Source of the DNA: Clostridiales bacterium
Lineage (GTDB): Bacteria; Bacillota; Clostridia; Christensenellales; CAG-314
Length of the DNA: 61,947 nt
Assembly (NCBI GenBank): GCA_022508325.1
Contig: JAFLVL010000002.1
Coordinates: 1-61,947 of the forward strand
Reading direction: 5' to 3'
Position numbers and translations under genes: made by a program. Of this stretch, positions 4,251 to 49,842 are shown piece by piece. Each line of letters begins with the position of its first letter. Position 1 is the stretch's first letter. The notes beneath the pieces are model-generated. The model searched no databases, was not told the origin of the DNA, and worked only from the letters and a program-made list of their open reading frames with translations.

Positions 4251-5501
4251 TTAAAAAACTATATATTTAGCAATCAAATCGATGTATTTTTTACTTATGA
4301 CAACCTTGATTTCTGTGTATTCGTCAAGATATTCAACGCTTTGGCATTGCGCGTCAAATTTGTGAAGCAAAGATAACATGCGAGCGCTTTCTGCAAGCGG
4401 TACGCGGATTTTGACGGTAGAGTAATGAGTGGCAACGTGCCTTTTGATATTCTCCATCAAAATGTCAATGTTTTTGCCGTCCAATGACGAGATAAATACT
4501 GACGAGACTGGCGTGTCGGAAGCGAGCGTTATTGATGAGTTAGTGCTTAATTTGTCGCATTTGTTGTAGACGCGTATTATTTGCGCAGTTGCCCCTAGTT
4601 CGCTCAAAGTTGCCTCTGTAGTGGCGATGTGGTCAGCAACGTTCTCGTCCGAAGCGTCGCAAACGTTCAAAAGTAAATCTGCGCGTGTTGCCTCTTCAAG
4701 GGTAGACTTGAAGGCGTTTATCAGAGTATGAGGTAGATCTTTGATGAATCCGACCGTATCGCAAAGCAGAATTTCAATTCCATTGTCAAGAGTGGTTTTC
4801 CGTACGGTTGTGTCAAGTGTTGCGAACAGTTTGTCATCTGCGTACACGTCGGATTGTGTCAATCTATTGAACAAGGTTGACTTACCTGCGTTTGTGTAGC
4901 CGACAAGTGCCACCGTAAAAATTCCGTTTTCTCGGCGCTTTTTGCGCGTGAGATTGCGGTGCGATTCTATTTCTTTCAGCTCAAGCTTCAAGCGGTGGAT
5001 TCTGTCGCGAGCAAGGCGTTTATTTGTTTCCAGCTTTGTTTCTCCTGGGCCGCGCGTGCCGATACCTGCGCCTTGACGCGAGAAATCGCCTTCAGGTTTT
5101 GTTGCCAAATTGTACGTTAATTGCGCAAGTTCGACTTGTTTTTTACCCTCGGCAGATGTTGCTCGCATTGCGAAAATGTCCAAAATCAAGTCGATTCTGT
5201 CGATGACATCGCAATCCAATGTTTTTGTCAAAAATGCGCGCTGTGTGGCGTTGAGATTGCAGGAAAATATTACGACGTCAATGTCACAATCCAGCATCTC
5301 AATAGTGCGCTTCAATTCGTCGAGTTTGCCTTTACCGAGCACTGTAGTGGGATCAATAGAGTCGCGTTTTTGCGTGCAGTAGAGCTTGATTTCACCTTGC
5401 GCGGTATTTATCAACTCTTTTATTTCATATAAATCCTGTTCCGACTTGGCGTTTGGCAGTTCCACGTATACCAACGCCACATTTTCTACTTTAACTTTCA
5501 A
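4251..5501 (-). CDS. hflX: GTPase HflX
   Basis: HflX N-domain ('GKGKLDEL'), G1 'GYTNAGKST', G3 'DTVGF', G4 'NKCD'. TTG start 1 nt after the upstream stop, with an AAGGA Shine-Dalgarno. Confidence 0.85.
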   Translation of the reverse strand: MKVKVENVALVYVELPNAKSEQDLYEIKELINTAQGEIKLYCTQKRDSIDPTTVLGKGKLDELKRTIEMLDCDIDVVIFSCNLNATQRAFLTKTLDCDVIDRIDLILDIFAMRATSAEGKKQVELAQLTYNLATKPEGDFSRQGAGIGTRGPGETKLETNKRLARDRIHRLKLELKEIESHRNLTRKKRRENGIFTVALVGYTNAGKSTLFNRLTQSDVYADDKLFATLDTTVRKTTLDNGIEILLCDTVGFIKDLPHTLINAFKSTLEEATRADLLLNVCDASDENVADHIATTEATLSELGATAQIIRVYNKCDKLSTNSSITLASDTPVSSVFISSLDGKNIDILMENIKRHVATHYSTVKIRVPLAESARMLSLLHKFDAQCQSVEYLDEYTEIKVVISKKYIDLIAKYIVF

Positions 5502-37585: not shown

Positions 37586-38161
37586 TCAAATGACGGCAGT
37601 TATTATTTTCAATATTACGAAAAAAGTCAAAATTTTGACTACAAAACCGATTGCGAGTATCATCAGACAAGGCAGAAAATCGCGCCACGATTCCCGAAAT
37701 CTGCGGCACGTAGGGTATTCGCAAGAGGCGAGAAAAGTCGCCAACATATAAGTTACAATCTCTGGCAATGCTACCAATATGGTGTAAAATACTCCCCAAA
37801 CCGACCAACACTCAATTGTCGCCGCTGTATTTGCACCGCAGTAAAAGCCAGCAACAAACAGCAGAAAGTAATTCAAAAAACGCGTTTGCGGCATGAGATT
37901 GCATAGAACGATGCAGAAAAAGTAAGCGAAAGAGCCAATCAGGAAGAAAAAAAACAGCGAAAATCCTCCTGTAAAAAGTGTCTCTGCAAAGGCGCTCCTA
38001 TTAAAATACCACCAACTGTAAGCGAATGCCTTAAATAACGCTACTCCAAGCGCAATGCCTGCGGCAGCAATCAATGCGCAAGCAAGCGCCCTCCACTTGC
38101 ATTCGCATATTTTTGCCCATAAATCTTCAAAATACCGTTTTATTCTACAAAAAATGCCCAT
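37586..38161 (-). CDS. multi-pass membrane protein, possibly SpoIIM-like
   Basis: About 5 hydrophobic helices. 'ALPEIVTYMLATFLAS' weakly recalls the SpoIIM family 'lPhg.fEipa' block. Weak Shine-Dalgarno. Function uncertain. Confidence 0.35.
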   Translation of the reverse strand: MGIFCRIKRYFEDLWAKICECKWRALACALIAAAGIALGVALFKAFAYSWWYFNRSAFAETLFTGGFSLFFFFLIGSFAYFFCIVLCNLMPQTRFLNYFLLFVAGFYCGANTAATIECWSVWGVFYTILVALPEIVTYMLATFLASCEYPTCRRFRESWRDFLPCLMILAIGFVVKILTFFVILKIITAVI

Positions 38162-38194
38162 ATCATTTGATATGAGCAATTCTTTCAGTTTATG

Positions 38195-38268
38195 CTAATT
38201 AGTCAACATCCATTTTGCGTATATTCCGTAGCCACGCGTTGGGTCGTTAACGAAGACGTGGGTAACTG
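38195..38268. repeat. displaced copy of the spoIVB 3' end (island boundary, att-like)
   Basis: 65 of 74 nt identical to 48736-48809. On the minus strand it encodes VTHVFVNDPTRGYGIYAKWMLTN-stop, identical to the real SpoIVB C-terminus, but has no upstream gene body. Confidence 0.75.
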
Positions 38269-38368
38269 TCAAGAAGTTATAAGAAATTTTCTTCCATAAT
38301 TCGTGTAGTTTCGCTATAAAGCGAAATCTTTCGACAGGTATTGCACGACACATTTCGACCAATGCGTA

Positions 38369-39508
38369 TTATTTCTTCATGTCAAGCATTTCATTCACTC
38401 TTGTTTGTATAAATGCTTCGATAATCTTAAGTCGATCATTTGGCAAATTGTACTTGGGATGCTTTTTGAACTTAAAGTTAATCAACTTACGCAACTCTAC
38501 TCTCTGTCTATCCGACAAAAATTCTTGGACTAATGCGTCATAAGAAACTCCTTCAAATGCAGGTGTTCGGGTTTTTGCATACTTTTCAATCTCTCGCAAA
38601 TCGTCTTCCATCGCATAGTTGAAGAGCGAAAGACCGTTATCAAAAATCGGTGCTAATGCAATTGGCTTATTTGTACTGTTGTCAACAAGTAGCCCGAAAT
38701 TTCCGAAATGCCTATCGGTATTGCATACAAGAGCATCAAATATCATCATGTCGGCAAACTCATCATAATAACTGTCGCCAAGAGATTTCAGGTACTTTAC
38801 TGCCTTTGTTAATGTGCAATTAGGCAAAAATTTATGGATTGGAACATACGATGTATTAATGTCTGTAAAAAGCTCGCATGTCGAACATACAATATCTTTC
38901 CATTTGGACAAGCCATAATTAACATGTTTAAGCCCCATCCTTTCGGCTATTTGCGCCGCATAGAATTCGGAATAAGGTTCTTTTCCTGCGTTGGCTGCAC
39001 CCGAAGTACCGCCCTTGCTTAGATAAATTTTCTTGTTAATTCTGCGCCAGCATTTTCTGAGCATACCATTCGTGGTATATTCCGGCGATGAAGTAAACCC
39101 ATTGTGCGTTGTGCTACCGTAACCGGTATAGGCTATCAAAGCCAAAGTTCGACTAAAGCTGTTTTCGTAAAGATTGTAGCTTGCAAATTTTCCCCTGAAT
39201 CCCTCTTCGACAATCCAATAGCTGTCGTTAAGTGAAAGACCTTTACTCAACTGTATAATTCCGATTGTATCATTATGCGAAAGTCCACTTCGCGACAGAA
39301 TTTGATCAACAAACTCCCTATTTTTCGGTATTACGCGAGATGACAACCATCGGACAAGTCCTTCCGAATCGGGAGTCATTCCAATGGGTAATAAATATTT
39401 CAATTCGTCATTCACATATTCGATATGATAGACAATTTCTCCCAATTTAGCTCTTTGCAAACTAAACTTTAGAAGGATATTGTCGTATTCTCTTAATTCG
39501 AATATCAT
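38369..39508 (-). CDS. HipA-like serine/threonine kinase (toxin-type)
   Basis: Catalytic block 'FDALVCNTDRHFGNFGLL...APIFDNG' (HipA_C D-R-H-x-x-N motif) and a HipA-like N-terminal region. No HTH partner gene adjacent. Confidence 0.75.
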   Translation of the reverse strand: MIFELREYDNILLKFSLQRAKLGEIVYHIEYVNDELKYLLPIGMTPDSEGLVRWLSSRVIPKNREFVDQILSRSGLSHNDTIGIIQLSKGLSLNDSYWIVEEGFRGKFASYNLYENSFSRTLALIAYTGYGSTTHNGFTSSPEYTTNGMLRKCWRRINKKIYLSKGGTSGAANAGKEPYSEFYAAQIAERMGLKHVNYGLSKWKDIVCSTCELFTDINTSYVPIHKFLPNCTLTKAVKYLKSLGDSYYDEFADMMIFDALVCNTDRHFGNFGLLVDNSTNKPIALAPIFDNGLSLFNYAMEDDLREIEKYAKTRTPAFEGVSYDALVQEFLSDRQRVELRKLINFKFKKHPKYNLPNDRLKIIEAFIQTRVNEMLDMKK

Positions 39509-39695
39509 TGTTTACCAGCCCTTCCGCAATGAAAAATACAGTATAGTTTCCATCGAAACATTTTTTAATATTGTATCATATAAAAGCGGAAAATTCAATC
39601 AGTGAATAGGCATTGTACTTAAGCTTCTTAATGATTGAATTGAATTTAAAACAAAAAACATCAAAAATTTCGTTAATAATATCTTGCTCTGCGTT

Positions 39696-39971
39696 TTACT
39701 TTAGCTGATTAAGAATAAATTGTTCTAAGGCTTCTTGTAGGGATGGACCGTCATCATTAAATTCGACCTTTACAGGCGTATCTCCGACTTTGAATAAATA
39801 CGGATTTTTAATTTGTGCCATGAAAGACAGTATACGCTCAAGTACCGGTTTCGAAGTGTCTATATGTACGGTTCTTATGTCTACCAAATCTTCCAGCTTT
39901 ACATCACCAATATCCAAAGACTTAAGGCATTCCAATTGTTTTGACAAATTCTCTTTGTTTTTTTCACTCAT
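39696..39971 (-). CDS. small conserved hypothetical protein, DUF6870-like (assigned from memory)
   Basis: 'LVDIRTVHIDTSKPVLERILSFMAQIKNPYLFKVGDTPVKVEF' matches the pattern I recall for DUF6870 proteins on Firmicutes mobile elements. Confidence 0.4.
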   Translation of the reverse strand: MSEKNKENLSKQLECLKSLDIGDVKLEDLVDIRTVHIDTSKPVLERILSFMAQIKNPYLFKVGDTPVKVEFNDDGPSLQEALEQFILNQLK

Positions 39972-40114
39972 GCAATTTTCCCCTTATGTTATTACCTATG
40001 ATAATTATAGCATACTGCTTATATTTATCTATACTTATAGGCAAAAATCCTGTGAGTAAACATTTTATATATTAGAACGTCGGATTTAATTCAATGATAA
40101 TTTTTTTAAATTAA

Positions 40115-40150
40115 AAATAATATGGCAGTAAATTTACCGCCATATTATTT
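40115..40150 (-). terminator. terminator hairpin at the end of the RloB-like gene
   Basis: Stem AAATAATATGGC / GCCATATTATTT (40115-40126 / 40139-40150) with a T-rich tail on the minus strand. Confidence 0.5.
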
Positions 40151-40764
40151 TAATTAAATTTCTTTTCAATTTTAGTAACCCAAGAGGTATCAGCTTGTTC
40201 AAGTTTATCTAACAATTCTATAAAATTTGAACTTGGCACTTCTTGCCATTCACATGAGATAGCAGACAAATTGGCTTTCATAACAGAATAATTAGAAGAA
40301 TTTACTTGCTTCATTATTGTCTCTCGTTGATTTGCTTTGGCTTGATATTCCTCTACTCCTGTCAACCTTTTTATAACTGGTGCATTTTTTACTTTACTAT
40401 TTGACGATAATCGAACCGAATTAAAATGCGACAAAATTATTTGCATCGTACAAGGATTTGCAAAAAACACAATGTCCTTTGCCACTTTCTTATTGTGATA
40501 TTTATCTATCTTTTTAATTAAGTTTTTGAATTGACCATACGGCTCAATTTCAGTATCGCAGAAAATCATAATCAAATCTGAATTGTCATTTTGGAATTCA
40601 TTTTGATAAACTGCAGTAATGTTGTCAATCGACCTAGCGTTTTTCAGTTTGATTGTATAATTTGAGTGAAATACTTTACATTCTATTAATTTAGAAAAAT
40701 AATCGTACTCTTCATAGCCTTCACAAATTATACATATCTTCTTTTGTGAAAATTTATTACTCAT
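40150..40764 (-). CDS. RloB-family protein (AbiLii-like)
   Basis: N-terminal 'KKICIICEGYEEYDYF' matches the RloB hallmark (i-x-CEG-x-x-E-x-x-YF). The ATG at 40764 overlaps the ATPase stop by 8 nt (ATGAGTAA). Confidence 0.65.
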   Translation of the reverse strand: MSNKFSQKKICIICEGYEEYDYFSKLIECKVFHSNYTIKLKNARSIDNITAVYQNEFQNDNSDLIMIFCDTEIEPYGQFKNLIKKIDKYHNKKVAKDIVFFANPCTMQIILSHFNSVRLSSNSKVKNAPVIKRLTGVEEYQAKANQRETIMKQVNSSNYSVMKANLSAISCEWQEVPSSNFIELLDKLEQADTSWVTKIEKKFN

Positions 40765-42040
40765 CTGCACTGTCCCCCAACAAAATTGAAATTAAGTCGG
40801 GCTCAGGTAATGCTCCAAGAGCACCTAATTTATACTTTTCTAATAAATCAGACTCTGAACGAATATTATCTTTATGTGCAGTATAGTCTTTTAGCGAATA
40901 AATATATGCACCTTCATCATTCTTTGCAGCAAACCAAATCTGATCTTTTCTGAATAATTTTTTGCAGTCCAATAAAGTGCCATCATGTGCTGAAAAAATT
41001 ATCTGCGCTTTAGTATTTAATTCGTTATTAAATAAAGATATTATTGCACGAGTTAATTTAAAATGAAGACTGCTATCTAGTTCGTCAACAATAAGAATTT
41101 TCCCTTCTTCAAGAGCTTCAATTATAAAGCTCGCCAAAGAAACCATTTTTTTCGTTCCAGTAGAATCATAGATAAGACTCTGTACAGGCTTGCCTTTATG
41201 AATTGACGTCAGCCTTAACATATCTTCAAATGCAACTGTAAGCTGCAAAACCTGTTCCTGTGGAGCCGAATACTGATAAATATTGGGATTTCTTTTTACA
41301 CTTTCATTATCGCTTTTTACATACTTATAATCTTCTATATCTAAATCCGCTAGTTTTATTAGCTCGACTATTCTATTACCTATTTCTTTATTCTCTTTTA
41401 AAGTCTGTATAGTTTTGCCAAGCGGAATATTATTTGCGTCCAACACTTCTATCTTAAAAGCAAAACTTCTTAAAATATTTTTGTAATATTCAATAATAGG
41501 AAATTTTTCACTATTAATTGTATATATCAAAATATTGTCAGGTGATACAGCTTTAAGCAATACATTTAATTCTTCATTATCAGCAAACTTATAAACATTA
41601 TTTACCATGTCTCTGATATAAATTTCTTTTTCACTTTCAGTTCCATATTTATCAACAGTAATTTCGGCAAGTCTCTCGTATACAAATCCTCTTTTATACT
41701 GATTTGTTATGGTTGAATCATATCCAAAATCATAACTATATGCCTTCCCATCAAATAAGAAAGAAATTCCAAGAAGGCACAAATTATTATTAGTAAATAG
41801 ATTGGGAGGAACTTCTGCTACAATGCCCAATAAAACATTGCGAATAGAATTTATTGCTCTTATAACACATGTTTTACCAACATTATTACCACCATATATA
41901 CAAGCTGCTTTTACTACATTAAAATTATTCTGCTGATATACATTAGAATAAAATTTTTTAATTCTCATATCTGCAATTAATGACATTTCTGTTTTATTTG
42001 CATAAACAAGAAAATTATTAACTCTTATACTTAAAATCAT
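40757..42040 (-). CDS. ABC/SMC-like AAA_21-type ATPase (RloA / AbiLi-like)
   Basis: Walker A 'GGNNVGKT' near the N-terminus and distal 'ILIVDELDSSLHFKL' (Walker B / D-loop) and 'FSAHD' (H-loop). The ATG at 42040 has a GAGG Shine-Dalgarno; the track start at 42109 is GTG. Confidence 0.7.
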   Translation of the reverse strand: MILSIRVNNFLVYANKTEMSLIADMRIKKFYSNVYQQNNFNVVKAACIYGGNNVGKTCVIRAINSIRNVLLGIVAEVPPNLFTNNNLCLLGISFLFDGKAYSYDFGYDSTITNQYKRGFVYERLAEITVDKYGTESEKEIYIRDMVNNVYKFADNEELNVLLKAVSPDNILIYTINSEKFPIIEYYKNILRSFAFKIEVLDANNIPLGKTIQTLKENKEIGNRIVELIKLADLDIEDYKYVKSDNESVKRNPNIYQYSAPQEQVLQLTVAFEDMLRLTSIHKGKPVQSLIYDSTGTKKMVSLASFIIEALEEGKILIVDELDSSLHFKLTRAIISLFNNELNTKAQIIFSAHDGTLLDCKKLFRKDQIWFAAKNDEGAYIYSLKDYTAHKDNIRSESDLLEKYKLGALGALPEPDLISILLGDSADE

Positions 42041-42069
42041 TTTAAACCTCGCTTTATATTTATATTTAT

Positions 42070-42098
42070 AGTATACCACTAAAATATTTTTTGTGCAA
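42070..42098 (-). promoter_or_regulatory. candidate promoter TTGCAC-N17-TATACT for the ATPase/RloB pair, with an inverted repeat over the -35
   Basis: The reverse complement of 42093-42098 is TTGCAC and of 42070-42075 is TATACT. GTGCAA-N5-TTGCAC inverted repeat at 42093-42109. Confidence 0.4.
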
Positions 42099-42162
42099 TA
42101 TTTTTGCACGAAAAATATTTATTTTTATTATTCCCTGAAACACTTGTTTTAAACTGACTACA

Positions 42163-42197
42163 AAAAAGTATCCGAAAACATCTCCCGGATACTTTTT
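42163..42197. terminator. bidirectional rho-independent terminator
   Basis: Stem AAAAAGTATCCG / CGGATACTTTTT with an 11-nt loop. It probably ends readthrough from the radical SAM operon. Confidence 0.6.
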
Positions 42198-42826
42198 AAC
42201 TCTGATACTTTGGTCGCAAAAGGACTTAGAAACTTTACAAGTAAATTATATCACAGCTTCATCTACTAATCAATGATTAACTTTTACTTATTTTGTCGAA
42301 TTATTATTTTTAAAGTAAAATAAATTTATAGTGTAAAAGAGTTTATTAATTAACTAATTACAGTTTACACAAACCAATACTATCTTTCAAACTTATAATT
42401 CAATATACTTTATTATGAAATATAAAATGTAAACAGAGTTTTCTGCTGAGATTCATCGTTATAATTTCATATACTAAAATCAGTACAAAATGGTTAAGCA
42501 AATAAAATATTTTTGATTTTATCCGATATTACATATTGACATCAATATGCGAAAATGTATATCTTGAATAAATCCAGTATCCTCGTCAATCTCATTCAAA
42601 GCACCTGATATATTCTTATGTATTAAAACATCTTTCATCAGATGAAAATCCTCATATTTAGTCTATCATATTTTAAAACTAATATTAACTGTTGTTTTTT
42701 ATGAATTACATGTACAGATTACGCGCTTTCAACTATAAAACTATTGTATCTCTGTTATTACGTACTTTAATAGCACAAAAAAGAGTTCCACTCTGTAAGC
42801 GTAGCACTCATATTTTGAGATAAATT

Positions 42827-43939
42827 CTATTTTGTTAAATTTTCTTTTATTATCTTTTGAGCGTAAGGATTTATATTACATAAATCAATTTCAGATAAGC
42901 GCACTTCAATGTTATCATAAACCATATTCGTAACATAACACTCAAAAGAACTTTTTCTTTGTAAACTTCCATCTAATAAACACGACGCATTACAGCCACT
43001 GTTACATTTAGTTATCCACTTGCATTTTTTACAACTAGTTATTCGGATTTCATTGTCTTTTAAGATATTAAGGAATGGCTTACTTAAAAAAGCTTCTCGT
43101 ACATCTGAAATCTCAAAAACATTAGCTAATTTAAATCCATCCTTTATTAATCGTCCACAAGGATAAATATCGCCATATGCATCTATAGCAATATATCTAA
43201 ACAAACATCCATGGTTTAGACATCCCGATTTAACGCCAAAATACTGGTGTAACAAATCTACACAAGACGCGACTCGAATGTTACATTTTTTATCATATAG
43301 CCAGTAATTAAACAATTCGATAAAATTATTTGTCCATTCTTCTTTACTAAGAGAAAAATCTTCATGTTGTTTGGCCGCACCATCAGGGAAAATATGGTTA
43401 AATTTTACAGGAATATTTCTTTGCTTGAAACACTCATACATATCCAATAAATGATTTATCGACTTAGATGAAACTGTAGCTAAGCAACTAAATGGCACCC
43501 CCTGTTCTTGCAATTTTGCAATTACTTTCTCTACTTTCTCCGTTTGTTGTCGCATATATGAATTATATGGTCCGTCATAGGATATAGATATGGATGTTTT
43601 GTTTGCTTGAAATAAGACTATAAACTCGTCAGTTAGAAGTGTCCCATTTGTCTGCAAATTAAACCTAAACTTGCAATCAAATTTATTCGAAAAAGTGTCA
43701 AACATTTTGTATGCCTTTTCGAAAAACTCAAATCCGGCTAACAGTGGTTCTCCTCCATGCCATATTATTTTTATTGTACTATAATTGGGCGCAAGAATAC
43801 TCAAAAATCTCTCAAGAGTACCTATTTCCATTATTTTTGTATCATATCCCGTATCTGCATGGTAACAATGCAAACATCTTAAATTGCAGGCGTTAGTGGG
43901 TTCTAATAATACGAGTATATCTTTGCTGAAATTCATCAT
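42827..43939 (-). CDS. radical SAM / SPASM-domain enzyme, anSME-like architecture
   Basis: 'CNLRCLHC' (CX3CX2C) at residues 18-25. C-terminal 'CLFRYIAIDAYGDIYPC' (CX10GX4C) and 'CKKCKWITKCNSGC' (CX2CX5CX3C) form the SPASM motif. Blocks 'GGEPLLAG.EFFEK', 'LQTNGTLL', 'SYDGP' and 'CKKCKW' resemble anaerobic sulfatase-maturating enzymes. No N-terminal RRE extension. Confidence 0.85.
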   Translation of the reverse strand: MMNFSKDILVLLEPTNACNLRCLHCYHADTGYDTKIMEIGTLERFLSILAPNYSTIKIIWHGGEPLLAGFEFFEKAYKMFDTFSNKFDCKFRFNLQTNGTLLTDEFIVLFQANKTSISISYDGPYNSYMRQQTEKVEKVIAKLQEQGVPFSCLATVSSKSINHLLDMYECFKQRNIPVKFNHIFPDGAAKQHEDFSLSKEEWTNNFIELFNYWLYDKKCNIRVASCVDLLHQYFGVKSGCLNHGCLFRYIAIDAYGDIYPCGRLIKDGFKLANVFEISDVREAFLSKPFLNILKDNEIRITSCKKCKWITKCNSGCNASCLLDGSLQRKSSFECYVTNMVYDNIEVRLSEIDLCNINPYAQKIIKENLTK

Positions 43940-43951
43940 TTTATTTTACCT

Positions 43952-44131
43952 TTAATATACTGGTAACTCTGAATATTCGGAGTACTCAGAATACTGTGAA
44001 TAATCAGAGTAATCGGCATCGCTATCAGAGTAATAAAAAATAAACGCATCATAATCCGTAATGGTCTGCGACAACAACCTTTTATATTTATCGTACAATT
44101 TAATTAGTTTTTGTTTATTCTTGTCATTCAT
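43952..44131 (-). CDS. unannotated 59-aa ORF, candidate radical SAM substrate peptide
   Basis: Hand translation: MNDKNKQKLIKLYDKYKRLLSQTITDYDAFIFYYSDSDADYSDYSQYSEYSEYSELPVY. The ATG overlaps the upstream stop by 8 nt (ATGAATGA), and the TAA lies 12 nt before the radical SAM ATG. It falls one residue below the 60-aa track cutoff. Confidence 0.55.
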   Translation of the reverse strand: MNDKNKQKLIKLYDKYKRLLSQTITDYDAFIFYYSDSDADYSDYSQYSEYSEYSELPVY

Positions 44132-45530
44132 GCGTTTTCACCTCGCTATATATAAATTTTATGAATGGATGCACCTCATATATATCTTTATCAATAATCC
44201 TTGTTTTCAAAATGATAGTCGAATCCAATAAAAACTGTTTTAATGTTTTTCGTTTGAAAGCTGACGTTCCAACGCCACCAGCCCTTGTACGTATCCTTAA
44301 TAACGAATCATCGAATTCTTTCTCACTCATCTTGCTACTAACGCTAATGATATATTTTTTTATATCTGCGATAGTATCTTTGTTGCGATGACAATCTGTG
44401 TATAGAGAAAGTGTCTCAAAATAGTCATCAATAATATCACGCTCTCTAGATTTAGCATTAGAGAATTCTTCATTGCGATAATATTTTTTTAGAGTCATTT
44501 CATCGTAACAATATTTATTTTCTATTCCACAAAAATTATTAGATGTGTTTAATGAATGAGATAATGGTAGAAAAATCCAATATGGATTATTGCCACTGTT
44601 GTCAATAACTTGTTTTAAAAATTCATTATTTGTTAGATGTGCTTTTTTTCCATTAAAATATAATGAACACTTACACTCCTCTTTCATTTTTTTGCATCGA
44701 TAAATTTGATTAGCGCATCCTTTGCCGTTTTTATGCTTTCTAGTATATGTTCTGATAGAACGAAGCATTATATCTAAGACTTCGTCTTCGCTTAATTGAG
44801 GCCAAGCATAGTTTAAGTCTTGAATCTTGCTTCGATATTCTACAGGCAACTTTCCACTGCCATTATCGAAACATTCAAATAAGCTTGTTTCAACTGCAAT
44901 GATAAATATTGGATTTCGGGATTTTAAAAAGAATTCAAAACATACTTTTCTAAATCTTGTAACTTGTTCACAACTATATTTGCTCCTTAATTTATTTCGA
45001 CAAAAACTATCGAAATTATCAACCAAATAAATAGTCTTTTGGTTTGTAGTCGGAAACATTTTTCTTAAAAACGCACCAATGATATTTCCATCATTTATCA
45101 TTTCCGACGAAAAACAGACATTTCCAAATTTTTCATTTGCATCAACTAATTGAACAGATTCACCATTCACACAAAAATTGTTAAGTCTTTCTCTTAATAA
45201 TTCCAAAAATGGTGATTTTCCAATATATCGCCCTCCATAAAAAAAGGTTTTATAACTACTGCCCAAAATACCCTCTAGAAGTTTGGCTCCACACATGCCT
45301 TTATTATCTACACAAACCCTAAGAACCTCTTGATATACAATCCTTTGCAATTCCACACAAGTATCATCAGCCAAATCAGCGTTTAGCGTATCTATGCCAT
45401 CTTTAGTCAAACTGTTAAAATACTTCAACATGCAATAGTACTTTATTTTTTTTGAAATTACTTCTGACTTGTTTGGTCTAACTACTTGTTCGTCCAATTC
45501 ATCAAGAGGTCTAAATCTTTTTTTACCCAT
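44124..45530 (-). CDS. P-loop NTPase of unknown family
   Basis: Walker A 'GGRYIGKS' (residues 99-106), Walker B 'TIYLVD' (166-171), Cys cluster 'CANQIYRCKKMKEECKC'. GAGGATGAG Shine-Dalgarno upstream. No family recognised. Confidence 0.55.
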   Translation of the reverse strand: MGKKRFRPLDELDEQVVRPNKSEVISKKIKYYCMLKYFNSLTKDGIDTLNADLADDTCVELQRIVYQEVLRVCVDNKGMCGAKLLEGILGSSYKTFFYGGRYIGKSPFLELLRERLNNFCVNGESVQLVDANEKFGNVCFSSEMINDGNIIGAFLRKMFPTTNQKTIYLVDNFDSFCRNKLRSKYSCEQVTRFRKVCFEFFLKSRNPIFIIAVETSLFECFDNGSGKLPVEYRSKIQDLNYAWPQLSEDEVLDIMLRSIRTYTRKHKNGKGCANQIYRCKKMKEECKCSLYFNGKKAHLTNNEFLKQVIDNSGNNPYWIFLPLSHSLNTSNNFCGIENKYCYDEMTLKKYYRNEEFSNAKSRERDIIDDYFETLSLYTDCHRNKDTIADIKKYIISVSSKMSEKEFDDSLLRIRTRAGGVGTSAFKRKTLKQFLLDSTIILKTRIIDKDIYEVHPFIKFIYSEVKTHE

Positions 45531-45557
45531 AGTTGCTCATCCTCAGTAAAGTCAAGT

Positions 45558-46241
45558 TTATTTCCTGCTTATTAATTGCTTTAAAATAAAAATGTTTTCC
45601 ACCATACCCTTGATATAGACCTTAAGTGCTGTATAATTATCACTGCTATTGTCTATTCTCTCGTTAAATTCTTCAATATAGGATTCCACCTTATGTAGCG
45701 TAACCGAAATTTGACCTTTCTTTTGTTTTTTTCTCATCCAGTTCTGAAAAACAATGTACCTAGGAATATTATAAAATATACTATCACTTTCAACCGAACA
45801 ACAAACGTTACGTATGCTTTCTATACCTAACCCGTTTTTAATGTTATTGTAAATAACTTTATATTGTTCATCATCAAGTTGCGGAATTATTTTAAAATTA
45901 GGTATAGTCTTACCAAACATTTTTTTAATTAAGACATCTAACTCCTCATTAATCACGCAGACGAGCGATTGATACTTATCCAATGTTTTCCATTGATGAA
46001 TGTAGGTAGCTTCAAATATAAAGCCAATACAGACACCTGCAAAACTTCCAACGAAACTCGATAAAACATTAATTACATAGTCATCTTTCAAGGCAAGAAA
46101 CTTAAGTTTCAAAAACATTTGCATCAATAATTTTATTAAAATCGGTGCAATACACAAGCATAATGCAAATATCAGAAATGATTTTAAAATAATTACAAAT
46201 CTATGCCAACCGACTGAATAATATTTGTTATCTTTATCCAT
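45558..46241 (-). CDS. 2-TM membrane protein of unknown function
   Basis: Two N-terminal hydrophobic helices ('FVIILKSFLIFALCLCIAPILIKLL', 'VINVLSSFVGSFAGVCIGFIF') followed by a roughly 140-aa soluble region. First gene of the four-gene operon. Confidence 0.5.
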   Translation of the reverse strand: MDKDNKYYSVGWHRFVIILKSFLIFALCLCIAPILIKLLMQMFLKLKFLALKDDYVINVLSSFVGSFAGVCIGFIFEATYIHQWKTLDKYQSLVCVINEELDVLIKKMFGKTIPNFKIIPQLDDEQYKVIYNNIKNGLGIESIRNVCCSVESDSIFYNIPRYIVFQNWMRKKQKKGQISVTLHKVESYIEEFNERIDNSSDNYTALKVYIKGMVENIFILKQLISRK

Positions 46242-46363
46242 TTTTTATTTCCTAAACTAATATGTTATAAACTACGAATAGTCAATTCTTGCTGGAATTT
46301 ATTTATATATACTTATTTCTTACCGAGCCATAAACAACAATTTCATCAATAACTGGTAGATTT

Positions 46364-46387
46364 ACAAACGAATTTTTTTTCGTTTGT
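46364..46387 (-). terminator. hairpin just after the CD-NTase stop (weak terminator candidate)
   Basis: 9-bp stem ACAAACGAA / TTCGTTTGT with a 6-nt loop, but no U-run after the stem on the minus strand. Confidence 0.3.
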
Positions 46388-46392
46388 CATTG

Positions 46393-47460
46393 CTATGCAA
46401 TTTTAATTACTCTATTAATGTCATCTCCTATGTCTCCCAACATCATAGAAGTCACTGATTGTAACTGCCTAACCCCTTCTATGCTTTCAGAACTACTTAG
46501 TTGATCGCCTAGCGGATCTAAAAGTTTACTAAAATTCTTTTCATGTCCATAAAATTCAAGTGTTTCATTTATTACCTTTAAAAGCGTCAGAGGGCTTTCT
46601 CCAATCCAATATTTATTAGTAGGAATAGTATATAAAAGCGAACTTATTGCATAACTGCTAAAATTAATTTTTGCACCTAGTTCTCTTTCAGCATCTGTTT
46701 TAATTGTTTTCAAAAGTCGTATCGCTCGTTTAAATACACCCCCTGTAAAAGAATCTTTGTTCTTTAACAAATCATTAAACCAGAAAGGGTAGTTTAATAT
46801 TCTCTCGTTATTCCTCTTGTTATAAATTTGAATTCCTCTATATATTGCATTGTTTGTTTCGGCATATCTATTACTGTTAAACCAATTCGCTGGCACCACG
46901 TCAACTTTTACAATTAAAGAACCTCCTGATAATGCAATACTTTTTGCTCCACTATTATCAACATGTACAGAAGACATCACTTTTTTTATTTGTCCCACGC
47001 AGTTATTCCGTAATTCTGCCAAATCATTTTCAGGCACTCCTTTGTAAGGATACTGTGGCCTCTGGGGATGTTCAAGAGTTTCATATAAACCAATAATTGT
47101 CAGCAAATCAACATCACTATTATGTCTAATGTGAGTATTATTGGATACTGATCCTTGGTATTTGAACTCGAGAGGAGCAGAATAATAAATGTTATCATTC
47201 ATCTGTTTTAGAACATTTTCGACACTCTTTCTACAGCTAATAATTTGTTGTGTATAATTTTGTGCTACAGGTAGCATGCCGCCGACTATATACCTAATGA
47301 GCGAACTTTCTTGCACCCACTGGTACTGCCTTGCTTGATTAAAACTCTCATACGCTGCAGCATTATGCCGTAATTCTTGTTCCTCAAGTAAAATTCTTTG
47401 CGCTGAACCGAACTTTCGAAAATCCATTTCTTTTAGTAATTTATCATAATCAAAATTCAT
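46393..47460 (-). CDS. CD-NTase / SMODS-type nucleotidyltransferase (CBASS cyclase)
   Basis: Pol-beta NTase motif 'YQGSVSNNTHIRHNSDVDLL' (G-S ... D-x-D) and third acidic residue in 'VKVDVVPA', as in cGAS/DncV-like enzymes. GGAG Shine-Dalgarno inside the end of the upstream gene. Confidence 0.7.
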   Translation of the reverse strand: MNFDYDKLLKEMDFRKFGSAQRILLEEQELRHNAAAYESFNQARQYQWVQESSLIRYIVGGMLPVAQNYTQQIISCRKSVENVLKQMNDNIYYSAPLEFKYQGSVSNNTHIRHNSDVDLLTIIGLYETLEHPQRPQYPYKGVPENDLAELRNNCVGQIKKVMSSVHVDNSGAKSIALSGGSLIVKVDVVPANWFNSNRYAETNNAIYRGIQIYNKRNNERILNYPFWFNDLLKNKDSFTGGVFKRAIRLLKTIKTDAERELGAKINFSSYAISSLLYTIPTNKYWIGESPLTLLKVINETLEFYGHEKNFSKLLDPLGDQLSSSESIEGVRQLQSVTSMMLGDIGDDINRVIKIA

Positions 47461-47461
47461 T

Positions 47462-48061
47462 TTATTTCTCCTGTTTTATTAATTTAATCGTACCATATCT
47501 TGGCCTATCTACTGGATAGTTGTAATACTTGCCATTAATAGAATTGTTATCAAACGTGATTGAAGCTGTACCATCATGTTTATGTAAAGCTTTTAAATTT
47601 CCATTTGGGGCATTCATATAACAATAATACAAATAGATACTCCCATCGTCTGATACATCGATATGCGCCATATAACTCTGCGAATATGAATTATCTGTTT
47701 TTAATGAAATCAGTATTTTAGACCATGTTTGTTTAATCGTTACAGTTCCTTTCCAGTCTGAAGTTTTGAAGTTTGATTTGCCGTCACACAAATATTGACC
47801 ACTTATTTTTTTACTTTTTATGCCGGGTATTATTTGCCATAACCATCTGTCGAATATAAAATACAATGCTGCAAATATAGATGAAAAACCAAATCCGATA
47901 ATCAAAATAAAAGTTATAAAAGGTGATCCAAGATTATCTGACAGCCTTCTTACAATAAAATCACACAACGGGGTTAAAACCAAATTAAGAATCATTGATA
48001 GTATTGTAATAATAACAATACTTAGTCTTCGATGACATTTATTTGATGTATACTTATGCAT
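47462..48061 (-). CDS. 2TM plus beta-rich effector, Cap15-like (CBASS effector)
   Basis: Two N-terminal TM helices followed by a roughly 125-aa beta-strand-patterned domain ('GTVTIKQTWSKILISLKT', 'SIYLYYCY', 'GTASITF', 'GTIKLIK'). Its stop is 1 nt from the NTase ATG. Confidence 0.5.
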   Translation of the reverse strand: MHKYTSNKCHRRLSIVIITILSMILNLVLTPLCDFIVRRLSDNLGSPFITFILIIGFGFSSIFAALYFIFDRWLWQIIPGIKSKKISGQYLCDGKSNFKTSDWKGTVTIKQTWSKILISLKTDNSYSQSYMAHIDVSDDGSIYLYYCYMNAPNGNLKALHKHDGTASITFDNNSINGKYYNYPVDRPRYGTIKLIKQEK

Positions 48062-48294
48062 TAAACTTCACCCTCTAGCTTTTCTCATGCAGACATAGCA
48101 ACTCTATATTTAATGATCTGCACCAGACACAAATTAACATTTTGTTAAGACATTTCTCGCACCAATCTCAATTAGATATAGCTGACAATGAGATTCAATG
48201 GATTGTCTTTTTTTGTTATTTATTTAATATACCTGGTATAGTATAAAAAAGTTAAGTTTATTTAAAAATTAAGAAAAATTTTTATTAAAACTAA

Positions 48295-48486
48295 TCACTG
48301 CACCATTTTGTTTCTACGAATTAGCTAAATAAAGGTGCGGATCTACGTTCTGTTCAAGCAATACTTGCTCAAACTAGCGTAGCAACCACTCAAATTTATA
48401 CAGAAGTTAGTACAAACCGTAAAAAACAAGTTTTAAAAAAAATTATAGAAATAAGTTGTGATAATATTTTGAAATTTATTGACTGA
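48295..48486 (+). pseudogene. C-terminal remnant of a tyrosine recombinase/integrase
   Basis: Translates to SLHHFVSTN*LNKGADLRSVQAILAQTSVATTQIYTEV... versus the family pattern LRH-FAT-LL--GADLR-VQ-LLGH-S--TTQIYTHV. It has an in-frame TAG, Arg to His and His to Gln substitutions at catalytic positions, and no upstream gene body. Confidence 0.7.
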
Positions 48487-48735
48487 AAATTATTTGGCAC
48501 AATTTGGGCACAAAGTTGGCAGAAAAATGCGGATGCTTTTTATTTTGAAGCCTGCTATAATATGGACAAACAAACGGTCAAATCAAGTTTGACACTCAAT
48601 TTGACCGTTTGGATTTAATAATAGTTATTTGTTATATTTTTCACGTTTGTACTTTATTATTTGATAATCATGCATCGCTAACGTAAAAGAAAAGGAGGTC
48701 ATTAAACGTTAGCAAAATACAATGTATAGTAATAT

Positions 48736-48809
48736 CTAATTAGTCAGCATCCACTTGGCGTAGATGCCGTAGCCGCGCGTAGGGTCGTTAACGAATACGT
48801 GGGTGACTG
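48736..48809. repeat. spoIVB 3'-end copy inside the intact gene (partner of 38195-38268)
   Basis: 74-nt alignment with 9 mismatches, all synonymous (8 at third codon positions plus one TTG/CTG Leu). Confidence 0.75.
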
Positions 48810-49842
48810 CGCCTACGAGCTTACCATTCTGAACGATGGGGCTACCGCTCATGCCTTGCACTATTCCGCCTGTTTTCTCCAAAAGCTCCTTGTCGGTTAC
48901 GTGAATGACCATTCCCTTGTCATCGCGGGAGGACTGTGGCGTTGCCTTAACAATCTCAATCTCGTAACTTTTGCGCACGTTGTCGTCCAATGTACAGTAA
49001 ATCAGCGCCTTGCCCGGTCTCACTTCTGAAACATCTGCTACGGCAATAGTTTTGGCGCAGAACTGCGGCAAACTGTTGAAAGTGCCAAAGGCTCCGAACT
49101 TATTATTAGTGTAGATATTGCCTGTGCGTTCATCAAAGCAAAAGCTTCCTTTGAGTTCGCCTGCTGCGCCCTTTTTGCCCTTCTCAATCCCATCAATCGA
49201 GCAATTGAACACACCCCCGTTGCTACAATTAACCGTGTTGCCCTGTGGATCGCATATCGGATGTCCAAGACTGCCAAAATTCAAATTTTTACGTACATAA
49301 GTCAACGTTCCGATACCGCTGCTAGAATCGCGCGTCCACAGACCCAGACGGTATTGCCCCGCCGTGAGATCTTTCTGCGGAGTTATAGTTGATTCCTGTA
49401 TTTTGCCATCGCGAAGGAACTTGACAGGCAAAGGGTTGCCTTTTGATGCATTTGCTATCTCCGTCAACTTACTCGAACCGTAAATCTTGCGACCGTTTAG
49501 CTCCACTATCACGTCATTAATTGCGATTCCCGCCGTTAATGCCGGACAACACAACTTGCCGTCTTGATTGACGAATTCATTGAGTCCAATTACCGTGACC
49601 CCATCGCCGTCGAGAGTTATGCCAAGAGGATAACCGCCAAGATAGACCTCTTCATCGATTTTCGTCGGTCTATTGCCCGTAAAAAGATTACCAACCTCGT
49701 CAAAAAAGCTGCCGTCAGCGGCGGTTTGCATAGCGACCACGTCTTGCGCAACTATATTAGTCTCAGCATGGGCTACAAGTAGTCCAAATTGTAACATGAA
49801 TATAAAACTCAATAAAAATAGCAGGAATTTCTTCATAGACAC
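48736..49842 (-). CDS. spoIVB: SpoIVB signalling serine peptidase (S55)
   Basis: Signal anchor, PDZ region, and catalytic block 'GGIVQGMSGSPIVQNGKLVGAVTHVFVNDPTRGYG', nearly identical in pattern to B. subtilis SpoIVB. Confidence 0.85.
   Translation of the reverse strand: MSMKKFLLFLLSFIFMLQFGLLVAHAETNIVAQDVVAMQTAADGSFFDEVGNLFTGNRPTKIDEEVYLGGYPLGITLDGDGVTVIGLNEFVNQDGKLCCPALTAGIAINDVIVELNGRKIYGSSKLTEIANASKGNPLPVKFLRDGKIQESTITPQKDLTAGQYRLGLWTRDSSSGIGTLTYVRKNLNFGSLGHPICDPQGNTVNCSNGGVFNCSIDGIEKGKKGAAGELKGSFCFDERTGNIYTNNKFGAFGTFNSLPQFCAKTIAVADVSEVRPGKALIYCTLDDNVRKSYEIEIVKATPQSSRDDKGMVIHVTDKELLEKTGGIVQGMSGSPIVQNGKLVGAVTHVFVNDPTRGYGIYAKWMLTN

Follow-up and report, generated by a model that had tools for sequence, protein, structure and literature searches.

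An acidic tyrosine-repeat peptide from uncultured gut Clostridia as the probable precursor for an adjacent radical SAM/SPASM enzyme in a conserved four-gene cassette

On the minus strand of a 61,947-nucleotide (nt) stretch of DNA from a Clostridiales bacterium (contig JAFLVL010000002.1; hereafter the window), a 59-residue peptide with an acidic C-terminal repeat of Tyr-Ser-(Asp/Glu/Gln) units is encoded directly ahead of a radical S-adenosylmethionine (rSAM) enzyme of the SPASM type. The peptide is the third member of a conserved cassette of four co-oriented, tightly packed genes, which specify in turn a protein with two transmembrane segments (component A), a P-loop-like protein (component B), the peptide itself (component C) and the rSAM/SPASM enzyme (component D). 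Comparison of related loci makes it highly probable that the peptide is the precursor and substrate of the adjacent enzyme. The particular chemistry that we favour, formation of cyclophanes on the Y-S-D/E units, is a plausible candidate that is held only tentatively. The best explanation overall, a leader-core precursor and a cyclophane-forming rSAM/SPASM enzyme encoded in a four-gene cassette, is considered likely.

The gene for the peptide, an open reading frame (ORF) of 59 amino acids (aa), and its parts lie as follows.

44131..43952, minus strand: peptide ORF, 59 aa followed by TAA, which translates to MNDKNKQKLIKLYDKYKRLLSQTITDYDAFIFYYSDSDADYSDYSQYSEYSEYSELPVY (read from the sequence)
44139..44144, minus strand: Shine-Dalgarno sequence GAGGTG, 7 nt 5' of the ATG (read from the sequence)
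44036..44131, minus strand: leader, residues 1-32, MNDKNKQKLIKLYDKYKRLLSQTITDYDAFIF, ending in a conserved F-I-F (alignment A4)
43952..44035, minus strand: core, residues 33-59, YYSDSDADYSDYSQYSEYSEYSELPVY, and the stop codon; six Y-S-[D/E/Q] units

The ORF reads exactly as the original prediction from this DNA gave it, as does the total of 11 Tyr; eight of these, rather than the seven first counted, fall in the last 27 residues, seven being the number in the last 26. Cys, Trp and Gly are absent. Five Y-S-[D/Q/E] triplets follow one another without a gap from residue 41 to residue 55, and the sixth (Y34-S35-D36) lies N-terminal to this run. The last basic residue is Arg18, no Lys occurs beyond residue 17, and the core is devoid of basic residues. 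Both ends of the gene are coupled to its neighbours, as had been proposed: the ATG overlaps the stop codon of the upstream 468-aa ORF by 8 nt (ATGAATGA), and 12 nt separate the peptide stop from the ATG of the rSAM gene. The repeat is indeed written with mixed synonymous codons (gat tac tct gat tat tca cag tat tct gag tac tcc gaa tat tca gag), and Tandem Repeats Finder detects no DNA repeat in the ORF at a score of at least 30, which rules out an origin by DNA slippage and upholds the earlier view that the repeat is maintained at the protein level. A non-coding RNA in the region was rejected after a negative Rfam search. In a six-frame scan of the window a single open frame carries at least four Y-x-[D/E] units within 24 residues, and it is the peptide ORF (five units, and YSQ in addition). 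Among 400 random 62-kb sequences generated with an order-2 Markov model, three such units were the maximum and four were never reached. The ORF is a real gene, with features far beyond chance.

About 50 homologues of the rSAM enzyme are found at 44-68% identity, almost all of them in gut metagenome assemblies, before similarity drops to a next tier at around 35%. Upstream sequence could be recovered for 15 distinct loci of this close tier, and these formed the comparison set. In 14 of them (the window, L001, L002, L003, L007, L087, L089, L091, L093, L195, L196, L197, L278 and L279) an ORF of 43-59 aa stands just upstream of the rSAM gene, ending 0-150 nt before its start. Several of these small ORFs are present in public sources as predicted proteins, called independently and none of them named; the L003 variant is found on 86 contigs. 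The homologous peptides share only 25-45% identity with the window peptide, while their architecture is constant (alignment A4). They share a leader of about 32 residues with the pattern L..L...Y..Y, in which Y16 is invariant and L9, F30 and F32 are at least 90% conserved. In 13 of the peptides it closes with F-I/V-F, the last residue of which is at 28-32; L007 has H-L-T in its place. The cores that follow are acidic and nearly devoid of basic residues, with between two and six aromatic-x-[D/E] units; Y44 is invariant, and S45, D46 and Y47 after it are each at least 90% conserved. The resulting consensus is MxxxxLxxLxxxYxKYxxxxxxxxxxDDxFIFxxxxxSxYxDYSDYSDxx. This combination of a fixed-length leader with a repeat core, recurring upstream of the rSAM gene at 14 of the 15 loci, supports the original prediction of a leader-core precursor for the adjacent enzyme. 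A broken reading frame next to a conserved rSAM gene, which had been named as grounds for abandoning that idea, was not observed in the comparison.

The repeat had been described as (D/E/Q)-Y-S. The repeat itself stands and its register shifts: in the cores of L091 (Y-S-D-S-Y-S-D-S-Y-S-D) and L093 (S-Y-S-D-S-N-Y-S-D) the adjacency of acid and Tyr is lost yet Y-S-D is kept, so that the conserved register is Y-S-D, a triplet that occurs exactly in every one of the 14 peptides. Of 68 cases across the 14 cores, Ser directly follows the aromatic in 39, and Asp or Glu stands at +2 in 47. His (H-H-D in L003) or Phe (F-S-E in L007, F-A-D in L279) may occupy the aromatic position. In many units, as well as in distant relatives, X2 is N, D, A, H, G or Y instead of Ser, which is the least conserved of the three motif positions across the wider family. 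As judged from the alignments, the conserved unit is aromatic1-X2-(Asp/Glu/Asn). The C-terminal Val-Tyr of the window peptide (L-P-V-Y) is absent from the other 13.

Peptides of a similar kind also accompany considerably more divergent enzymes. Directly upstream of rSAM genes whose products are only 26-35% identical to component D there are again aromatic-x-D/N repeat peptides, with different leaders. In Bacteroidota, Y-x-D/N peptides are encoded at the following positions.

L013, 4800..4994: one peptide
L015, 4220..4393 and 4374..4544: two tandem copies
L016, 4134..4301: one peptide
L098, 3269..3424: one peptide
L100, 1..174: one peptide, YANYGDYFDYADYANYTD, with the units Y-A-N, Y-G-D, Y-F-D, Y-A-D, Y-A-N and Y-T-D

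The leader of the Bacteroidota peptides (T-Y-A-Q-K-A-I..L) is unlike that of the close family, and on the DynA model their rSAM enzymes reach 281-302 bits (values from L013, L015 and L098); they look like a sister precursor family. On a temperate-phage contig from IMG/VR (L176, 3850..5107) a D/E-Y repeat peptide (..GDYPEYGEYSEYLDYHDYSD..) is paired with an rSAM of 33% identity, and the pair immediately precedes genes for a holin, an amidase and a serine integrase, a typical moron position. A candidate peptide of a metagenome-assembled genome of a Bacilli member with 25% GC (L009, 4820..5011) lies upstream of a 35%-identical rSAM and has a TGA within its frame. Under genetic code 4, where TGA specifies Trp, it is 63 aa long with a His-rich H-x-D/N core, and the rSAM frame likewise has one stop fewer. 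In a six-frame scan of 194 loci, repeats of this type were nearly confined to positions upstream of rSAM genes, with two false positives inside long ORFs. When JGI metagenome data and IMG/VR were scanned with an rSAM profile, no enzyme of the close family (above 44% identity) was returned, only distant ones.

The enzyme itself is encoded immediately downstream of the peptide.

42827..43939, minus strand: component D, radical SAM/SPASM enzyme of 370 aa without an N-terminal RRE domain (PF04055, E = 6e-15)

Its SPASM domain scores 26.1 bits on PF13186 (cut-off 21.5). The CX3CX2C motif (C18/C22/C25) is invariant in 42 homologues, as is a SPASM set comprising C240, C245, G256, C261, C303, C306, C312, C316 and C334, the cysteines of which form a complete set for two auxiliary [4Fe-4S] clusters. 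The absence of an RRE domain follows from the radical SAM core beginning at about residue 10. An AlphaFold2 (AF2) model of component D has a mean predicted local distance difference test (pLDDT) score of 93.9, and its best PDB neighbours in a Foldseek search are the anaerobic sulfatase-maturating enzyme anSME (template-modelling (TM) score 0.81) and ChlB (TM score 0.78), with CteB and SuiB next. The best NCBIfam scores are below cut-off, namely DynA (NF041298, 169.3 bits against 450) and anSME (TIGR03942, 159.5 against 349.45); MftC (TIGR03962, 55.9 against 265) and HxsB (58.6 against 370) are lower still. Its one match in PADLOC is to the generic rSAM core of pVip, at 44 bits. By these profile scores component D belongs to none of the curated anSME, DynA or cyclophane synthase families, with which it has in common an RRE-less architecture of about 360 aa.

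The closest precedent for a repeat of this form is provided by the triceptides, in which an rSAM/SPASM enzyme acting on an aromatic1-X2-X3 motif forms a bond between the aromatic ring and C-beta of X3 (PMC11499958). The classic motif is Aro-Xaa-Asn (PMC9062424), and proven examples extend to Y-S-K, H-A-S and F-T-K (PMC12912966) and to H-T-K, H-A-A and Y-D-R (PMC11499958). The enzymes that make such three-residue cyclophanes (3-CyFEs, among them XyeB, GrrM/OscB, YhhB, HaaB, HtkB, ChlB and MicB) are also RRE-less rSAM/SPASM proteins of about 360-370 aa, and their substrates are likewise short precursors with a repeated aromatic1-X2-X3 unit whose aromatic residue is Tyr, His or Phe. Since the motif described here differs from triceptide motifs only in having Asp/Glu at X3, and tolerates Tyr, His or Phe at its first position, the three-residue cyclophane is the best fit among the four chemistries that the original prediction had offered; those modelled on mycofactocin, on PQQ and on serine oxidation by anSME fit less well. 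The Lys-rich leader of about 32 residues, probably helical over its L..L...Y..Y segment and ending in the conserved Phe-Ile-Phe, would present the acidic core with its six Tyr-Ser-(Asp/Glu/Gln) units to the enzyme, and hydrogen abstraction would take place at C-beta of the acidic +2 residue. That carbon would then be joined to the Tyr ring, giving a chain of three-residue cyclophanes of the triceptide type with a loss of 2 Da per unit. Peptide and enzyme would act within the translationally coupled four-gene cassette. Because component D has no RRE domain, component B may hold the leader or serve as a scaffold; the leader may bind either to B or directly to D, in the way that the ChlA leader binds ChlB, the triceptide synthase whose structure has been solved with bound leader peptide.

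A number of observations weigh against this proposal or set the system apart from known triceptides. Component D falls far below the cut-off of the curated cyclophane synthase models YhhB (98 bits against 445) and AmcB (98.6 against 425), and the same is true of GrrM/OscB (89.6 against 310), XyeB (51 against 450) and FxsB (61.5 against 370). In both sequence and structure it is marginally nearer to anSME than to ChlB, which gives 57 bits by sequence. No characterised triceptide synthase with an acidic X3 was found in the literature, the known X3 residues being K, R, N, A and S. The partners of the enzyme in this cassette are a two-transmembrane and a P-loop-like protein, not the protease, oxidase or transporter that accompany triceptide synthases, and the setting is one of defence islands. 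No protease or exporter/transporter is conserved with the cassette among the loci compared, which is unusual for a secreted peptide that is made by the ribosome and modified after translation (RiPP). Finally, the rSAM of L008, at 47% identity, has no adjoining peptide, A gene or B gene, the sole exception among the 15 loci; its enzyme may act on another substrate, or the locus may be a decayed cassette.

One alternative accepts the same substrate and changes the reaction: the enzyme would convert Ser to formylglycine, form a PQQ-like Glu/Asp-Tyr cross-link in another register, epimerise residues, or, like the darobactin and dynobactin enzymes, install an ether or C-N link. We consider this rather unlikely, although the enzyme comparisons lend it some weight, anSME being both the closest solved structure and the second-best profile, DynA being the best (169 bits here, and more in the Bacteroidota relatives), and Ser being found at X2 more often than any other residue within the close family. 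With anSME (PDB 4K36-4K39) component D shares 25% identity and the same architecture with two auxiliary clusters; however, its partner is a co-conserved small peptide that lacks the sulfatase motif C/S-x-P/A-x-R, and no sulfatase family match was found among nine ORFs of the surrounding genomic island that were scanned. Serine oxidation in the manner of anSME is weakened further by the replacement of Ser at X2, by any of the six residues listed above, while the aromatic and acidic positions persist. The DynA and darobactin enzymes do make aromatic cross-links on short motifs, but the core described here resembles neither W-N-S-N-V-H-S-Y-R-F nor aromatic1-X2-aromatic3, and the host is a Gram-positive gut anaerobe. 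A PQQ-like reaction (PqqA/PqqD/PqqE) is disfavoured by the lack of a conserved E-x-x-x-Y spacing, by the failure of a Pfam scan to detect PqqD and by the poor structural match to PqqE (TM score 0.56). That Phe can stand in for Tyr argues against chemistries which depend on the phenol oxygen.

Two further peptide systems invite comparison. The Val-Tyr terminus had been likened to that of mycofactocin MftA, and MftC is itself a SPASM enzyme; since this ending is not conserved among the 14 peptides, MftA-like Val-Tyr chemistry is ruled out, and an RRE protein resembling MftB was not detected in Pfam and NCBIfam scans. The His-Xaa-Ser system (HxsA-D) also places a three-residue repeat peptide beside a SPASM enzyme, and the cores of L003 and L009 are rich in His, but it has two rSAM enzymes where there is one here, and its repeat is different.

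Preceding the peptide in the cassette are the two partner genes.

45558..46241, minus strand: component A, 227 aa, first gene of the cassette, with two transmembrane (hydrophobic) segments read from the sequence
44124..45530, minus strand: component B, 468-aa P-loop-like, Cys-containing protein with a Walker A-like GGRYIGKS and a Walker B-like IYLVDNFD

Neither these two proteins nor the peptide has a match in Pfam, NCBIfam, PADLOC or PHROG. Homologues of component A occupy the same position in nine other loci, and their alignment (A5) reveals a YYNV..H motif, a glycine-zipper second transmembrane segment (LLPDFLGGMxGIxIGFxLEW) and the conserved cytoplasmic motifs S.EN.SIL.NLP and LLQEIH..I..RN. 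Component B belongs to a fast-evolving family of 470-790 aa proteins, again found at the same position, with an N-terminal LCxLKFYN, a P-loop-like core, a Cys-containing middle region, the motifs RKCW and NPWW..PL.H, a C-terminal PF..YVYSD and two invariant cysteines, C33 and C286 (alignment A2). The NTPase neighbour of the original prediction needs qualification. The protein is P-loop-like and in the window keeps the Walker A Lys, but outside the window this Lys is retained only in L002 (GTPGTGKS); six of nine aligned homologues have instead a RHMGxTS-type motif without Lys, and in a seventh, L093, no Walker A can be recognised. A conserved Walker B (hhhhDDLD) is present, and matches to AAA proteins are weak (E of about 0.01-0.07). 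Because the Walker A Lys is missing from most homologues, an essential NTPase activity of component B appears doubtful, and most members of the family are probably without such activity. Component B is also close to being an orphan. A phmmer search of 1.84 billion representative sequences returned one true relative, P0123; searches of genomes with back-translated patterns returned none, a word-index search and a search with the A2 profile each recovered the query alone, and the profile gave only noise against PDB sequences. An AF2 model built from a two-sequence alignment was unusable (pLDDT 38), and component B was left out of the fold search.

The cassette lies within a genomic island, the borders and other contents of which are as follows.

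48736..49842: spoIVB, one border of the island
46393..48061: CBASS pair (CD-NTase and Cap15-type effector), directly upstream of the cassette
38369..42109: overlapping AbiLi (450 aa) and AbiLii (206 aa) pair and a HipA-like PDC-M03A protein (379 aa), the last a kinase matching the PADLOC candidate PDC-M03A
38180..48735: the island, 10.5 kb with 29-32% GC against about 44% (GC falls between roughly 38 and 48.5 kb)
37586..38179: gene for a conserved 197-aa membrane protein, the other border

The host has its close relatives among uncultured gut Clostridia near Christensenellaceae. In several of these (L280, L282) spoIVB and the 197-aa membrane-protein gene are 20-45 nt apart and are followed by phosphopentomutase, whereas in the window 10.5 kb separates them; other relatives have inserts of about 1.2 kb (L281) or 4.4 kb (L284) at the same site, or other genes after spoIVB (L307). 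Because the two border genes abut in L280 and L282, and inserts differ elsewhere, the island is an insertion at a variable hotspot. PADLOC found no matches in the L284 and L307 inserts. In the window, the CD-NTase of the CBASS pair (355 aa) matches the PADLOC cyclase profile at E = 8e-84, and its 199-aa partner is a Cap15-type effector with two transmembrane segments (PF18153, E = 2e-26). Between the AbiL pair and the HipA-like gene lies a 91-aa ORF (39696..39971). Between the rSAM stop and the AbiLi start there is an AT-rich stretch of about 700 nt (42110..42826) with a negative Rfam search and no minus-strand ORF of 40 aa or more; a 43-aa plus-strand ORF (42692..42823) lies at one edge, and one weak terminator-like hairpin (42082..42120) straddles the edge with the AbiLi start.

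Elsewhere the cassette has as neighbours an AriA/GajA-like ATPase (L001), Tmn (L091), or an IetA-like AAA protein with TerD and a kinase (L089). A Ser/Thr kinase and a 646-709 aa protein with weak similarity to PP2C/SpoIIE adjoin the cassette or the rSAM gene in L002, L087, L196, L197 and L008, with two vWA genes added in L087 to give a TerY-P-like set; homologues of this accessory module are absent from the window. In L008 (364..6080) the rSAM gene comes directly after those for the kinase (528 aa), a PP2C-like protein of 679 aa and a 312-aa protein with a weak match to anthrax-lethal-factor-like metalloproteases. Other neighbours of the cassette are ArdA (L093) and a type IV secretion system (T4SS) coupling protein (L196). 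Three loci (L003, L278 and L279) have the cassette among housekeeping genes (dap operon) and no defence neighbours. The cassette lies beside an asd-dapA-dapB operon in L003-L006 and L278, and beside a dinB (IMS) gene in L003 and L091, which hints at preferred insertion neighbourhoods.

These surroundings raise the possibility that the cassette is an anti-phage or conflict system, with the modified acidic peptide as an intracellular trigger, cofactor or effector, component B as sensor or scaffold and component A as membrane effector. Such a role would not conflict with the rSAM enzyme acting on the peptide. We rate it as unlikely on present evidence. In its favour, the window cassette sits in a low-GC island flanked by CBASS, AbiLi/AbiLii and the HipA-like PDC-M03A protein; defence-type neighbours recur in L001, L091, L089 and the kinase/PP2C loci; ArdA and the T4SS coupling protein occur beside it, and a relative takes up the moron position in L176; and the lack of a conserved protease or transporter is in keeping with an intracellular role. 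Anti-phage lanthipeptides (bioRxiv 10.1101/2024.06.26.600839) supply a RiPP precedent and a possible functional analogue, being modified ribosomal peptides that act in phage defence, although their enzymology is unrelated. The argument is nonetheless one of guilt by association. PADLOC-DB 2.0 matches none of the four proteins, save for the generic rSAM core noted above, the three loci in housekeeping surroundings do not fit, and bacteriocin and RiPP clusters too ride on mobile islands. The rSAM-containing defence system Ophion, which consists of rSAM, PHP and PRTase, is unrelated. The fuller version of the idea is that the four genes constitute a system of a new kind, directed against phages or serving conflict between elements, in which a cross-linked peptide would be the intracellular switch or effector, the cassette being a mobile unit that inserts into defence hotspots and is also carried on temperate phages; this is quite unlikely.

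A translated peptide need not be a substrate. It might be an acidic mimic of DNA or protein, an antitoxin-like regulator of the cassette or a metal-binding tail, leaving the rSAM enzyme to act on component B or on a small molecule. Such a role is very unlikely: the leader-core architecture and the tight coupling to the rSAM start speak against it, and the peptide co-varies with the rSAM even at 26-35% identity, in loci that either lack A and B or have different ones (L013, L015, L098 and L176). It is this persistence of the pairing that ties the peptide to the enzyme specifically, and it outweighs the retention of an rSAM without peptide in L008, the invariant cysteines of component B and the extreme acidity of a core with no basic residue. 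That the ORF is no gene but a chance open frame in an AT-rich spacer is scarcely tenable, for although it is short, and the exact window peptide is listed from ENA only (the 227-aa and 468-aa neighbours being listed from NCBI also), its conservation in 14 distinct loci with divergent DNA, its strong ribosome-binding site, the overlapping or abutting starts and stops, and the failure of all 400 random sequences to match it effectively refute this view.

Collectively, the pairing of an rSAM/SPASM enzyme with a leader-core precursor is a well-known kind of system. Novelty appears to lie in the acidic-X3 motif, in the clade to which the enzyme belongs, in the two families of partner proteins and in the genomic setting; neither the searchable literature nor any of four profile libraries yielded a description of these peptides or of components A and B. 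Should the proposed modification hold, radical SAM cyclophane chemistry would gain an acidic aromatic-x-Asp/Glu motif and a new clade of enzymes, from uncultured gut Clostridia that are difficult to mine by activity. The cassette is set apart from an ordinary RiPP cluster by two partner families without detectable relatives and by a protease or exporter not being conserved with it, and also by its repeated occurrence on mobile elements, one of them a prophage, and beside defence genes (CBASS, AbiL, AriA/GajA-like, Tmn and kinase/PP2C/vWA modules). Whether radical SAM peptides take part in bacterial intracellular immunity is thus a question that may be approached with a single 3.4-kb construct.

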